Part shown: positions 2,780 through 10,594 of the stretch, one piece after another
Position numbering within the stretch: the first letter of the stretch is position 1
How the letters are laid out: every line of letters starts with the position of its first letter
Source: an uncultured delta proteobacterium
GTDB taxonomy: Bacteria; Desulfobacterota; Binatia; Bin18
DNA length: 64,000 bases
Direction of reading: 5' to 3'
Assembly (NCBI GenBank): GCA_963733195.1
Contig: CAVTCR010000073.1
Span: 1 to 64,000, forward strand
Notes under the pieces: generated by a model
Databases searched by the model: none
What the model was told of the DNA's origin: nothing
Seen by the model: the letters and a program-made list of their open reading frames with translations, nothing else
Translations under genes and position numbers: made by a program

Positions 2780-3763
2780 GGACCGATTCCGAGCGACGAC
2801 GCCTCACCGCTCCCCACGCGGCGCCGGGGTCTATCAAGCGAGCGTAGCGGATCTCAAAGCTACACAGAACAACATCTTGTTCAATGGTGCAGTCGAGGCG
2901 TGTGATGGGAACCTGTCGAACATGATACGCTACCGCTCTCGATCACCCAGATTGGTATCTGCCTGGTGTCGTATGCCGGTGAGCAAGGGACCTGGGTTCA
3001 ACGGCTGTTTCGGCGGGACTTGCGCGTGCGTGGCATGGACCCGGTCGAAGAGGCGCTGGCTGTCCTGGAGAAACGTGCCGAACGCTCAGGACTTGGGCAG
3101 TCCGGCAGACGCGATCAACTCAGTGAACTAGGACGCCGGGGAATCATGGCCTACGCCGAACGCGCCGTCTTATTGAAAAGATCGCAGGCTCCCTGGCGTA
3201 TGGGACATGGTAATCCCGCGCCATACGAGTTGCTCACTGGGTCCGGCAGTATGGACCTACTCCTCGCCGGTTTGGATCTGCTCAGCGAACTGATTCTAGG
3301 GCACAAACGTTTCGTCTACGTTCCCAGTGCTCCCAATGAAAGGGTATTTTCAACCATCGGTTACGCCCTGCGTCCGTTGGAGTTTGCCGTCATTGATACG
3401 ATGGAAGATCGCATGGCACCGATTATTGCTGACGGCCATTTACGCGGCGCATATAGAGAACGCGCGGAAGAGTTTTATCATCAGACTGCCCCGCACATTC
3501 TCACCGGTGTCTACCGAACGACGAGCACCGCGCCGCCACAGATTTTTTATGCCCATGCCGACTTTGTCCAAGAGGCCGCGCTGATCGCCATGGCTGATAG
3601 TGTGCTCCAGGAACATCGTGGGTTTCCCATGTTGATCGACCTTGCGGACACTGTGTGCCGCAGCACCTGCGGAGCTGAGGCGTTCACTGCTACCGTCCAG
3701 TCAGTCTATGCCCGTCAGGGGCGACCCTTCCGCTACCTGGCCGAGCGCGCCACCCGACATTAA
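2780..3763 (+). CDS. nurA: NurA-like nuclease (start uncertain, frameshifted)
   Basis: The upstream frame gives AVEACDG (NurA-type DG acidic motif), then [18 protein letters not shown] joining ORF 2966-3763. The C-terminal [10 protein letters not shown] resembles the NurA GYP..L..A motif. Lies next to a HerA ATPase. Confidence 0.6.
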
Positions 3764-5510
3764 TGTGCGTGTCGCACTTGCTGTGTTGGTGGGGAATACA
3801 AGGGGAAAGGAAACCATGTCTATGGCAAACACATTGCACCAAGCGACTGAGAGTTTGTTTGATTCTCCTCCGCCTGAATTCGCCCCGCGTCCAGTGTCGA
3901 CCGCTGCTCGGAAGAGCGTCGATGCAGTGGCAGAAGAAGTGGGTGGTGCGTATCACTCTTTGCCTGCCACTGAAGGAGCTGTGGCCTTCACGCATTTCGA
4001 CACGCCGGCGAGTGAAGATAACACAGTGACAATCTTGCTCACGAAAGAAAACATGGATCGACTGCCGTCGCAGACCTTGGTGCGGATCATCAGCTTGACA
4101 GACGACGGCGCAACGGACCGTGCGTACATTGGCGCGGTCGTCGCCGGGCCGTTCGCTGAGCCCGACGGTCTGCGGGCGGATTCACCGATTGTCGTGACCA
4201 CGACGGTGCAAGGACGCATCTTCTTGCCGCGCTATCATGGGCGTGCCTCACTGCAAATTCTGGGCGAAGAAACTGACTCGCAACTTATTCCGCCGCGCTA
4301 CCGCCCACGACCTAACAGCCCAGTCTTTCCTCTGTCCGCCGAGGAAACTGCGAGGATATTGAAGGTAGGTGGCAACGCGCGGTCTGGGCATCGTGGTGGG
4401 GCAGGAAGAGATCAGTGTGAGTATTCCTACTGATAAGAAGTCCGTCCTGCCTCGGCACTTAGGTATTCTCGGTACAACTGGTGGCGGCAAATCGACCACT
4501 GTGGCCACTCTCGTCCAATCAATTGCAACAAGCCGGAGTCGCCACCATTCTCATCGACATCGAAGGGGAATACACGGAGATGGACTTGCCTACCGATGAT
4601 CCGCCGATGCTCGCAGCGTTGCAGCGACGTGGACTTCACCCTGCTGGCACCAAGGGCTTGCGCGTTTTCCACCTTATTGGGCGGGAGACCAGCCGTGAAG
4701 CTGCCGGCGGCTTCGTCAAATCGTTCTGTTTGCGGTTCTCGGACCTGTCGCCTTACGCTGTAATGGAGATTCTTGATCTTCCGCCTGCACAGCAAGAGCG
4801 CTTCTTGAAAGCCTACGACACGCTGAAACTCGTCTTGAAGGACCTGAACATTTTTCCCCAGAGAGGGGAGGAACAGTTAGCGCTGGAGGTTGACGAACTG
4901 GAGACCGGCACTCCGCGCATGACGTTGCTGCAATTGATCGACGTGGCCGGAGTATTCGCCGAGATGGCTGCCAATACCAAAGAGGAAAGAGGAAAAACCA
5001 AAGGACACGAAGCCGATGAGTCCTTGCGGGCCTTTGCTCTGGTCTCGCCTGAGCTTCGCGGCAAGGAGCAGTACATTAAACAGCGGGCGGCGGCGACCCC
5101 AATGCTGGGGAACGCCATTAGTTGGCGCGGCCTGTTGGGCAAACTGTGGCGGGTGCAGCGGCTACAGGTATTCGATAATCCCAAAGCACCCAAACTCGAT
5201 CATGCCGAGTTTGCTGCAACCAGGGAGTGTCTCGGTGGTTGACCTTTCTGACACTGACTCACCACAAGTGAACAATCTGGTCATTGCTGATCTGCTGCGT
5301 GGGGTGCAAAAACAGCAAGAAGAACTTTGTCACAAAGCGGAAGCTGAACAGCGACGACCAACGCCGGTGGTCGTTATCATCGAGGAAGCGCACGAGTTTC
5401 TTTCCGCTCATCGTGTTCAGCAGATGCCGGTGCTGTTTCAGCAAGTGGCCAAAATTGCCAAACGTGGGCGGAAGCGCTGGCTAGTACCGTGTCTCATAAA
5501 TACGTTAGCA

Positions 5511-6980
5511 CACGACTTGGAAGGTTACGTGGCAATAGAGCGTGGAACGAGGTAAAGAGGGGCACATAGTAAGAGGAAGAGGATGAATGCGTCATGCTAC
5601 CAATGGTGGGAGTGCCAGAAGCGGTGCGAAAAGGACTGCGTCCGTACCGGGATTTATTTCGGCGGGCCGAAGGCTTTGAGTATGTGAGTCGGTATGTGAC
5701 GGGGTTGTTGGTCAATCCGAACAAGACCTTGCAAGGGATTTATGCGAATCAAGTGTGGCCCGAGCAGAAGCCAAGTCGGCGGGCGATGCACGAGGCGGTA
5801 TTTGAAGCGGAGTGGAAAGCGGACGAATTACTGCCCCGCCATCGGGCGCTGATTGCGCCGGAGCATCGGAATCGCGGGCGCGAAGTGATTTCGTTGGATT
5901 GGACGTTGGTCCATCATGAGCGCGGCCCCCAGATTTACGGGGTGACCAAGAGTGATGATTATGTGGAACGGCGGATGGCGCGATTTCAGACGACGGTCAC
6001 GGCAGTAATTGCGAATCGACAGCTGATTGATGGGATCGATGTGCAAATTCAGGAGCCCGGGGTCTGTAAGGAAGAGGAAACATATTTGAAAGCGACTGTA
6101 CAAGCGAGTTATGAACAGATGGAGCAGGCCCGGACCCGCATCTTGGAATTACTCCATCATCTGGAACATCGGCTCGCGTACAAGAAGCGCACAGAGATAG
6201 TAGTAGAGATGGTGGCGCAAGTAGAAGAGGAAGGAAAGTTTCCCCAAGCCGACTATGCCTTTGATAATGGGGTGCTCACGGTAGAGTTGACGCGGTTGAT
6301 TGAGAGCAAAGGCAAACATTGGGTGAGTGAGTTAGAAAGTTCGCGCCATATTCTCTGGCACGACCAGTGGCGACGGATAGAGGAGGTAGCGACGGAGTTA
6401 CGGCAGAAACATTCGGAGACTTTCCGCCCCGTGTCCGTGCGATGTCGGAATGGGGAGCGGAAAGAGTTTTGGGCGTTCACGAAGAGTGTCCGACTCAAAC
6501 GGTATGGGCGCAAACGGATCGCGATGGTCCATGAACGGGCCGAGCTGACAGACAAGCCCCGCTTTTTAGTGGCTGATGCCTTACATTGGGAGAGTGGGCG
6601 CATCATCGAGACGTGGAGTTTTCGCTGGGCAGCCGAAGTGTTTCACGAGTTCAGCAAACAAGGGACGGGCTTGGAAGCGGCTCAGGTGCGCAATGAGGAG
6701 GCGGTCAAACGCCACCTCCATTTAAGTTGCCTCGCGCAGTCGCTCCTGCAGCGTGCGCCTACGGTTGCGTCGACCTCGGAACAATTCGCGTTTGCCAAAG
6801 GGGAGAAAACCTTTGGGCAACGCTGCCGCACGATTACGCGGGAAGTGTTCCACTCTCTCTTAGCCTTCGCCCAACGGCTCTTTGCGGGCGGGTCCTCGTG
6901 TGCCCAAGTCCTGGAGGCCTTGATGCCAGCTTGATTCACTACAGTGCGACTTGGTTTCGCGTGAAACCTTCCAAGTCGTG
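5511..6980 (+). mobile_element. IS701/IS4-like insertion sequence nested inside the IS630 end
   Basis: Perfect TIR CACGACTTGGAAGGTT/AACCTTCCAAGTCGTG; direct repeat TTAGCA at 5505-5510 and 6981-6986. Confidence 0.92.
5594..6934 (+). CDS. DDE transposase, IS701/IS4 superfamily
   Basis: ISLDWT, AFDNGV and RWAAEVFHEFSKQGTGL motifs; intact 446-aa ORF between TIRs. Confidence 0.88.
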   Translation: MLPMVGVPEAVRKGLRPYRDLFRRAEGFEYVSRYVTGLLVNPNKTLQGIYANQVWPEQKPSRRAMHEAVFEAEWKADELLPRHRALIAPEHRNRGREVISLDWTLVHHERGPQIYGVTKSDDYVERRMARFQTTVTAVIANRQLIDGIDVQIQEPGVCKEEETYLKATVQASYEQMEQARTRILELLHHLEHRLAYKKRTEIVVEMVAQVEEEGKFPQADYAFDNGVLTVELTRLIESKGKHWVSELESSRHILWHDQWRRIEEVATELRQKHSETFRPVSVRCRNGERKEFWAFTKSVRLKRYGRKRIAMVHERAELTDKPRFLVADALHWESGRIIETWSFRWAAEVFHEFSKQGTGLEAAQVRNEEAVKRHLHLSCLAQSLLQRAPTVASTSEQFAFAKGEKTFGQRCRTITREVFHSLLAFAQRLFAGGSSCAQVLEALMPA

Positions 6981-10196: not shown

Positions 10197-10306
10197 ACAA
10201 AGGGCTAGGGAAGCCGAACGGATTCTAGAGGAAGATAATTCGAGGCGTCATCCCTCGCGGAAGCAGGGATCCAGGGTGGAAAGGAGTATTTGCAAGAAAG
10301 AGAGGA

Positions 10307-10594
10307 ATGATGGAAACCCACATCGTCGCCTATGACATTCGCCATCCCAAGCGCCTACGGCGGGTCGCCAAGACCTGCCAGGATTTCGGTGGCCGCCGGC
10401 AACTGTCTATTTTCCTGTGCCGTATTTCTGCGTTGGATCTGGTGCGCTTAAAGGCACGACTGGAGGAGATCATTGACCCCATGCAAGATCAAGTGATCTT
10501 CATGCGACTGTGCGCCAACTGCGCGGTACAGATTGAAGCGCTGGGACTGCCGACCGCAGCCCATGACGCGCAGGATGTGGTGATTGTGAGTTGA
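10307..10594 (+). CDS. cas2: CRISPR-associated endonuclease Cas2
   Basis: IVAYDI..PKRLRRVAK..G.R.QLSIF motif in a 95-aa ORF following cas1. Confidence 0.95.
   Translation: MMETHIVAYDIRHPKRLRRVAKTCQDFGGRRQLSIFLCRISALDLVRLKARLEEIIDPMQDQVIFMRLCANCAVQIEALGLPTAAHDAQDVVIVS

Follow-up and report, generated by a model that had tools for sequence, protein, structure and literature searches.

We analyzed a 64,000-nucleotide (nt) stretch of DNA from an uncultured delta proteobacterium (contig CAVTCR010000073.1 of assembly GCA_963733195.1), referred to here as the window, in which genes for a NurA-like nuclease and a HerA ATPase lie directly before the adaptation genes of a type I-G CRISPR locus. Our data favor, with modest confidence, the reading that this pair belongs to an autonomous, inducible HerA-NurA cassette that has repeatedly been fused to type I-G adaptation genes and that is dead in the window. 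An earlier note on this DNA had described a nurA-like, herA, cas4/cas1, cas2 arrangement with a 4-nt gap after herA. The arrangement was borne out by tblastn and the gap by the sequence itself: the gap lies between the herA TAA (8463-8465) and the cas4/cas1 ATG at 8470, where the frame begins with a typical Cas4 N-terminus. We found that the nurA-like/herA pair is the 3' end of a larger cassette, which comprises genes for an N6/N4 DNA methyltransferase, an extracytoplasmic function (ECF)-like sigma factor, a small helix-turn-helix (HTH)-like protein, an M78 peptidase, a NurA-fold protein, and HerA.

A nurA-like open reading frame (ORF) was found in 3 of the 60 related genomes searched besides the window's own (4 of 61 with the window's genome included). 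Two of these genomes, G011 and G013, carry clear NurA-like orthologues with 75-77% identity; in the third, the match is marginal (25% identity, E 9.9e-4). In G011, intact genes on one strand encode a 202-amino acid (aa) protein, a 127-aa protein, the M78 peptidase (252 aa), the NurA-like protein (428 aa), and HerA (646 aa), and the same strand continues, again intact, with Cas4g/Cas1g (591 aa), Cas2, Cas3g, Csx17, Csb1, Csb2, and an array. The type I-G scores in G011 are all above their cut-offs (Cas4g/Cas1g 681.7 bits, Cas3g 811.8, Csx17 697.1, Csb1 91.4, and Csb2 176.8). The NurA-like family is large: clustering at 90% leaves over 1600 homologues, none of them named, and clustering at 50% leaves 562 cluster representatives (E<=0.001). 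We searched the G011 proteins on 10 loci taken from species-representative genomes and, out of 229 metagenome loci, on the best 80; one locus (L020) duplicates another (L014) and was dropped, leaving 89 loci, and counts of upstream genes were restricted to loci with enough upstream DNA. HerA follows the NurA-like gene in all 66 loci that have 2 kb or more of downstream sequence. Upstream of the NurA-like gene, the M78 peptidase is present in 77 of 80 loci, the sigma-like 202-aa gene in 56 of 59, and the N6/N4 DNA methyltransferase in 49 of 51. The 127-aa gene, which is short and divergent, was found by tblastn in 45 of 72 loci. Proteins from loci recorded under different phyla share 47-64% identity, which points to horizontal spread of the cassette. 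The NurA-like protein was not found in the plasmid or phage records searched.

The earlier note had placed a NurA-like nuclease upstream of herA, and structural comparison agrees with that assignment. Using VIA-align wide, an exhaustive structural comparison, we found that the five best matches to the model of the NurA-like protein are all NurA-type nucleases: S. solfataricus NurA (2ygk_B, Z 10.7, 206 aa aligned at a root-mean-square deviation of 4.9), a TdpAB chain (8wet_G, Z 8.1), D. radiodurans NurA (7f6d_G, Z 8.0), T. kodakarensis NurA (9x1l_G, Z 7.3), and TM1739 (1zup_B, Z 6.7). Argonaute PIWI and EndoV folds rank next, at Z of about 5. On these matches, we assign the upstream protein a NurA fold. 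Neither the window fragment nor the intact orthologues match any Pfam, NCBIfam, or PADLOC model, and a profile search of PDB sequences with the family returned nothing relevant. In the ESM Atlas, the clusters nearest to the NurA-like protein list the Pfam NurA family (PF09376) on 21-64% of their members, whereas it was found on none of the 90 family members that we scanned. We therefore speak of a NurA-fold protein and do not place it in the Pfam family. Across 42 NurA-like sequences, E144, H153, D185, E232, E255, H325, H364, and D378 are invariant, and the position that resembles the Asp of the DGS motif (147) is a His in G011. One 654-aa protein, P0292, ties the peptidase to the nuclease, with an M78 peptidase domain (residues 78-114 matched) fused to a NurA-like domain (261-607). 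Among 151 genomes from the window's class, just one was found to have canonical NurA (PF09376), and it was not found in the window's genome.

The identification of the second protein as a HerA ATPase held up in the intact G011 orthologue, which matches Pfam DUF87 (PF01935, 8.9e-21) and HerA_C (PF05872, 3.1e-12), both above cut-off, and PADLOC HerA (3.6e-30). The Walker A motif (GTTGGGKST) and the Walker B EE are invariant. HerA falls far under the NCBIfam equivalog cut-offs (best 92 bits against 800 for NF040937), as it does for the NCBIfam anti-phage HerA models (65.5 and 50.6 bits against cut-offs of 800 and 850). A complex model of HerA (1-600) and the NurA-like protein (45-428) reached an interface score (ipSAE) of 0.73, compared to 0.00 for the best of three controls; 58 of 80 solved complexes and 2 of 110 mismatched pairs attain that mark. 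The runs of this complex have at least 72% of contacts in common, with a partner predicted local distance difference test (pLDDT) score of 80 and a predicted interface at HerA residues 27-51. Since HerA-NurA complexes have already been solved, the pass of this model could stem from likeness to them.

Our data suggest that the cassette carries its own regulators. The 202-aa protein is an ECF-like sigma factor, given Sigma70_r2 matches in 26 of 41 members (best 5.9e-8) and a profile match to SigK at 9e-4. The M78 peptidase matches Pfam PF06114 (9.5e-07, 29.1 bits against a cut-off of 22) and PADLOC capP (8.6e-07). The 127-aa protein is modeled with a pLDDT of 85.7 as a helical domain plus a long helix; its fold matches are all weak (E 0.36-2) and mostly to Xre-type repressors, including DdrO (E 0.4) and the CapH N-terminal domain, and HTH Pfam matches are scattered (2 of 35 members). 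The cassette methyltransferase matches Pfam N6_N4_Mtase and PADLOC MTase_II. The sigma-like, small, and NurA-like proteins have no PADLOC or NCBIfam model. We also considered the MADS system and rejected it: mad8, on the HerA P-loop (3e-22), is the sole clear match, mad3 is marginal, and the other cassette proteins match no mad model.

We found Cas4/Cas1 downstream of HerA in 14 of the 65 loci for which 300 bp or more of downstream sequence is available; the count is 12 of 52 when 1.5 kb is required and 10 of 41 when 2.5 kb is required. Including the three linked loci of G011, G013, and the window, the total is 17. The record titles of linked loci span four phyla and include Terriglobales, Ktedonobacteraceae, Nitrospinota, and a 'Deltaproteobacteria' metagenome-assembled genome (MAG). 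In all 17, the genes share one strand, cas4/1 comes after HerA, and the adaptation genes are proximal to herA. The order nurA-like, herA, cas4/1, cas2, cas3, csx17, csb1, csb2 is conserved and is intact in relatives, in line with the synteny with type I-G cas4-cas1 that the earlier note had proposed to test. Several other I-G-type loci have the usual csb2-cas4/1 order, unlike the window. L030, L034, L040, and the window have 4 nt between herA and cas4/1, and L077 has 2 nt; the gap measures 31-84 nt in L050, L104 (84 nt), G011, and G013, and 289 nt in L056. ORF starts were set at the first possible start codon, so the true gaps may exceed those given. A scan of the herA-cas4/1 junction of the window for a promoter or terminator, either of which would have separated the two genes, found no promoter site and no room or signal for a terminator. 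Across positions 2300-11500, 8 promoter-like sites were found where 3.3 are expected, and none is interpretable in a pseudogene locus.

In a tree of 33 Cas4/Cas1 sequences, 9 of the 10 HerA-linked sequences form one clade with an SH-like approximate likelihood ratio test (SH-aLRT) support of 100. The tenth, from L104, lies in another clade, which indicates two or more origins of the herA-cas4/1 junction. Both main groups of linked loci are seen again when the Cas4/Cas1 tree is set beside the concatenated tree of NurA-like plus HerA proteins (62 rows, 58 different). On the latter, the Cas label changes 6 times compared to a mean of 12.8 when shuffled, and none of 500 shuffles gave a number that low.

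Our data show the gene content and order, the fold, the recurring junction of fixed order, the Cas4/Cas1 clade common to linked loci, and the decay of the window copy. The switch, nuclease activity, defense role, and prespacer coupling that we infer for the cassette would work together as follows. By analogy with IrrE/DdrO and CapP/CapH, the peptidase/HTH/sigma trio would turn the operon on upon a signal of DNA damage or infection. HerA and the NurA-like protein would then assemble as a translocase-nuclease, load on DNA ends, and degrade DNA, as archaeal HerA-NurA and TdpAB do, and the methyltransferase probably marks, and so spares, host DNA. In one sub-lineage, and in at least one independent case, the cassette became joined, head to tail, to a type I-G locus that begins with its adaptation genes, which would allow read-through from herA into cas4/1-cas2 and cas3-csx17-csb1-csb2. 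The likely outcome would be that CRISPR adaptation is induced together with DNA shredding and that the degradation products serve as prespacers. A bolder version, which we put forward tentatively, holds that the cassette is a hitherto undescribed immune module that is inducible, its protease/repressor/sigma switch freeing a methylation-guarded HerA-NurA shredder, and that the I-G-linked transcript also delivers Cas4/1-Cas2 and so hard-wires spacer capture; if true, it would amount to a built-in relay from innate to adaptive immunity in a bacterial type I system.

Several observations weigh against this reading. With regard to the fold, Pfam NurA matched none of 42 close members (E<=1) and none of 48 distant representatives (E<=0.01), and hhalign against one canonical NurA subfamily, built from 32 PF09376-bearing bacterial proteins, gave a probability of 0.3% (E 0.21). 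The AlphaFold model of the NurA-like protein, made from 42 sequences, is mediocre (pLDDT 65.8), and Foldseek of this model against the PDB returned nothing at E<=0.001 and weak NurA rows at E 0.15-0.76. PADLOC detects no known system in the cassette loci. Methylation is dispensable: in G011 (L013) the methyltransferase is a fragment of about 70 codons (approximately 17147-17353) beside an alpha/beta-hydrolase gene in a locus whose remaining cassette and I-G genes are intact, and L022 and L074 have no methyltransferase, which weakens a simple restriction-modification logic. Most orthologues are unlinked to cas genes, an outcome that the earlier note had named as refuting its idea: of the 52 cassettes for which 1.5 kb or more of downstream sequence is available, 40 have no cas genes after HerA, so the cassette does not need CRISPR. 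The linked share is probably overestimated, because loci were picked by their likeness to a Cas-linked query (the best 80 of 229). Conversely, among 401 genomes of the window's phylum, Cas4g/Cas1g was above cut-off in 21, and none of the 30 other I-G-type cas4/1 loci in these has HerA within its 1.5-kb flanks (28 had at least 1.4 kb upstream), so type I-G does not need the cassette. Finally, repair-type genes often follow HerA, and they suit a role in repair as well as one in defense.

The earlier note had offered two possibilities, a resection engine dedicated to the CRISPR locus and a co-transcribed second defense system, and of these we favor the second because the pair forms the last part of a larger cassette that brings its own methyltransferase and regulators. 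A dedicated accessory would have no role of its own: the HerA/NurA-like pair would resect invader ends for Cas4/1-Cas2, in adaptation or interference. Such a role is what the fixed order, the 2-4 nt junctions, the single clade of 9 in 10 linked Cas4/Cas1 proteins, and the two main subgroups that recur on the cassette tree would lead one to expect. It also has precedents in archaea, where nurA-csm6-herA clusters are already held to be CRISPR-associated: in the passages that deal with them, those of Thermoproteales are proposed to serve adaptation (PMC3396285), one further paper counts such clusters among accessory genes (PMC3973734), another describes them as 'type III coevolved' (PMC6546367), and a figure legend places NurA and HerA among putative CRISPR auxiliary genes (PMC10910872). 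Set against this are the absence of HerA from all 30 other I-G-type loci and the occupation of the same slot after HerA by exonuclease, Mre11/Rad50-like, and DUF2130 genes, with DUF2130 standing between HerA and Cas4/1 in L051 and L054. Since three quarters of the cassettes stand alone, we consider a pure accessory role unlikely. Most cassettes and most I-G loci do occur apart, and one might instead regard the linked loci as two unrelated defense systems that are uncoupled neighbors in a defense island, the window being a case of joint decay. The wide junctions of L056 and L104 and the genes found between herA and cas4/1 (DUF2130 in L051 and L054, a Mre11/Rad50-like pair in L017) are in keeping with this. 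Chance adjacency would, however, have to produce the same strand and order with adaptation genes proximal in 17 of 17 linked loci, a gap of 2-4 nt in five loci, linkage on at least two occasions, and a clustering of the linked label on the tree that no shuffle matched, and we regard it as quite improbable.

A role in repair is a serious rival given the Mre11/Rad50-type neighbors, although on balance we doubt it. Here the cassette would be a mobile, damage-inducible module for end resection or repair, in which an IrrE/DdrO-like switch acts on HerA-NurA, and its adjacency to CRISPR would reflect shared use of DNA ends or co-location. Mre11/SbcD-like and Rad50/SbcC-like genes follow HerA in L015 (13988-18790), L017 (8200-12002), L023 (5652-10975), and L079 (13093-15354), a setting that resembles the archaeal herA-mre11-rad50-nurA neighborhood as outlined in the literature. 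Loci lacking cas genes have a PF13482 exonuclease-like protein after HerA in 10 cases, and DUF2130, RmuC, UvrD, and MrfA-like helicases (one with an RNase_T exonuclease) are also found there. By its Pfam family, the M78 peptidase is of the IrrE type, and the small protein has its weak DdrO match. A repair module sits less well with the DNA methyltransferase in 49 of 51 loci, the patchy occurrence among related genomes, the identity shared across phyla with the horizontal spread it points to, and neighbors typical of defense islands and mobile elements, since GmrSD, AbiE, Tn7-like genes, recombinases, and insertion sequence (IS) elements follow HerA in some loci. We therefore retain the autonomous, inducible cassette with recurrent fusion to type I-G as our preferred explanation.

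How CRISPR systems take prespacers from invaders rather than from the host is still debated. In RecBCD/AddAB-dependent prespacer supply and in restriction-stimulated adaptation, a processive end-degrading machine or a restriction cut feeds Cas1-Cas2. Those enzymes are host functions unlinked to cas genes, whereas the candidate engine described here is in the same putative transcription unit as them. IrrE/DdrO and CapP/CapH are protease-repressor switches made of an M78 peptidase and a cleavable Xre-type HTH repressor. The cassette resembles them in placing an M78 peptidase (PF06114, capP) beside a small helical protein with weak DdrO/CapH fold matches; it differs in adding an ECF-like sigma factor, and its HTH assignment comes from non-significant matches. 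The phosphorothioate-based restriction system TdpABC joins a DNA-modification gene to a HerA/NurA-type module, as the cassette does. Among structural matches, a TdpAB chain (PDB 8wet/8wfd) ranks second for the NurA-like model. Going by its description in PMC12914056, TdpABC is set apart by its modification gene, tdpC, where the cassette has an N6/N4 DNA methyltransferase, and the regulatory trio is not in the tdpABC cluster as described. The anti-phage pairs SIR2-HerA and DUF4297-HerA (PMC11472057, PMC11291478, PMC11514289) likewise combine a HerA-family ATPase with an effector enzyme, and PADLOC HerA models match ours. As far as those systems are described in these sources, the cassette differs in having a NurA-fold effector, in the added methyltransferase and regulators, and in a partner protein with no PADLOC system model. 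SIR2-HerA, DUF4297-HerA, and TdpABC are the nearest functional analogues of the cassette.

Among end-resection machines, the HerA-NurA complex of archaea and Deinococcus (PDB 2ygk, 7f6d, 9x1l) shares with the cassette a HerA-type hexameric ATPase gene beside one for a NurA-fold nuclease, the predicted interface between the two proteins, and, in some cassette loci, adjacent Mre11/Rad50-like genes. In contrast to that complex, the cassette protein matches neither Pfam NurA nor a canonical NurA profile, its HerA scores 92 bits against the cut-off of 800, and its operon adds a methyltransferase, a sigma factor, an HTH protein, and an M78 peptidase. The archaeal nurA-csm6-herA clusters also tie a HerA/NurA pair genomically to CRISPR-Cas. 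As portrayed in the passages cited above, they are archaeal, have csm6 between nurA and herA, lie near type I-A/III arrays, and encode a protein that matches Pfam NurA. In our case the loci are bacterial and of type I-G, with a direct herA-cas4/1 junction, no CARF gene, and a larger autonomous cassette. Our literature search found no paper joining HerA to type I-G or I-U and no description of a methyltransferase/sigma/M78/NurA/HerA cassette; the supplementary tables of PMC10910872, which lie outside that search, might narrow the novelty. CRISPR-associated HerA/NurA was thus already known in archaea, and what is of interest here is the recurrent hard-wired herA-cas4/1 junction and the unnamed cassette. 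An I-G lineage with a HerA-NurA-type machine 2-4 nt before cas4/1 would make prespacer coupling testable on one cloned operon. Apart from CRISPR, the cassette is conserved, its NurA-like protein is unnamed in Pfam, NCBIfam, and PADLOC, and it is a candidate for a new HerA-based defense or repair system.

We mapped the window copy using intact orthologues as tblastn queries; coordinates are positions 1-64,000 of the stretch. On the + strand, the order is a nurA-like remnant, herA, cas4/cas1, cas2, cas3g, csx17, csb1, csb2, and a six-repeat array. Every gene of this composite locus is broken except cas2, and the window copy is a dead pseudogene relic; the resection engine of its own that the earlier note had proposed is not at work here, and nothing functional is left of it. 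For the window's genome this is an ordinary finding, since the locus is dead and has been worn down by frameshifts and IS elements. The nurA-like pseudogene (2808..3763, stop 3761-3763) has lost about 114 5' codons and has a frameshift between 2912 and 2921: residues 115-149 of the intact 428-aa orthologue lie at 2808-2912 and residues 153-428 at 2921-3748, the long piece with 78% identity, and the listed ORF 2966-3763 is part of this pseudogene. About 52 nt and no gene separate its stop from the start of herA, and the two genes are likewise adjacent in relatives. The 5' part of herA (approximately residues 1-559, 3816..5480) passes through four frames with at least three frameshifts, as its tblastn pieces (3819-4388, 4384-4524, 4520-5212, and 5181-5519) each lie in a different frame with 72-81% identity to G011 HerA. 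A DUF87 match falls at 4396-4530, and the HerA fragments of the window score 18.1 and 17 bits in Pfam, under the cut-offs. The 3' part of herA (approximately residues 560-646, 8206..8465) ends with the TAA stop, and its tblastn piece (8190-8462) has 82% identity to G011 HerA residues 556-646.

Further along the + strand, the type I-G cas4/cas1 fusion pseudogene (8470..10191, ATG 8470-8472) has at least three frameshifts; four tblastn pieces span 8461-10191 in frames 1, 3, 2, and 1, and its fragments match Pfam Cas_Cas4 and Cas_Cas1. The intact cas2 (10307..10594, 95 aa) matches Pfam CRISPR_Cas2 (3.9e-20) and, at 10310-10591, has 88% identity to G011 Cas2. It is followed by fragments of cas3g (11443..13648; NCBIfam TIGR02621 pieces at 5.3e-83 and 1.5e-07, and tblastn pieces), at least four ORF fragments of csx17, or cas8g (14001..15973; TIGR04113 on four ORFs), fragments of csb1, or cas7g (16028..16919; TIGR02570 1e-10, and tblastn), and three ORF fragments of csb2 (17341..18975; TIGR02165 on all three). 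In the CRISPR array (19618..20036, +), five spacers of 38-41 nt separate six 37-nt repeats that are identical, where none is expected in shuffles, and its repeat family is that of the G011 array. The window locus thus fits type I-G, with fragments of every signature gene and a six-repeat array. ORFs past 20.7 kb are long and unbroken, which indicates that the breaks are local and do not reflect a general assembly problem. No public sequencing run contained more than 0.12 of the words of 2780-10594, probably owing to the IS elements, and the frameshifts are those seen in the assembly. We found no trace by tblastn in the window of the four genes that precede the nurA-like gene in relatives (methyltransferase, two small genes, and M78 peptidase) and no second nurA-like copy in the window's genome, which has just one weak second DUF87 match.

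Part of the damage to herA is due to nested insertions. An IS630-family element (5481..8205, - strand) lies within herA at a CTAG site, with 29-nt inverted ends that are 83% complementary and a transposase in two ORFs, 7779-8144 (HTH) and 6989-7735 (DDE_3), that match Pfam DDE_3 (3.3e-27) and HTH_23. Removal of the element in silico, a step envisaged in the earlier note, restores the HerA reading text across the outer IS630 ends, joining RGRKRW to LGLVFVTQ. An IS701-family element (5510..6981, +) is nested in the left end of the IS630 element, with perfect 17-nt inverted repeats and TAGC on both flanks; its transposase is ORF 5594-6934 (NCBIfam 3.5e-27). A gene pair for a ParE toxin (Pfam ParE_toxin 5e-11) and a RelB-like antitoxin (NCBIfam 1.4e-08, under its cut-off) is inserted between cas2 and cas3 (10674..11161, -), an interval that is just about 100 nt in G011.

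Window Cas3 (11458-13648) has 84% identity to residues 1-188 of G011 Cas3 and just 27-45% beyond them, and window Csx17, Csb1, and Csb2 have merely 29-37% identity to their G011 counterparts. Judging from these sequence identities, the interference module of the window may have an origin other than that of the adaptation module or may be in more advanced decay. Other Cas-linked copies also appear damaged. In L024 (10001-16824), the nurA-like gene is truncated, herA is split, and cas4/1-cas2 is both duplicated and frameshifted, and herA of G013 is in two ORFs (L014 5280-7202); this damage may be genuine decay or MAG assembly error. Among loci with no cas genes, L027 has a DisA-type diadenylate cyclase with DACNG/DACNH sensor domains after HerA (13766-15499). 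In the window's genome, other Cas1 loci are intact on contigs C14 and C28 and split by a TAG on C51, and C28 also carries a second Cas4/Cas1-like stretch with two stops.

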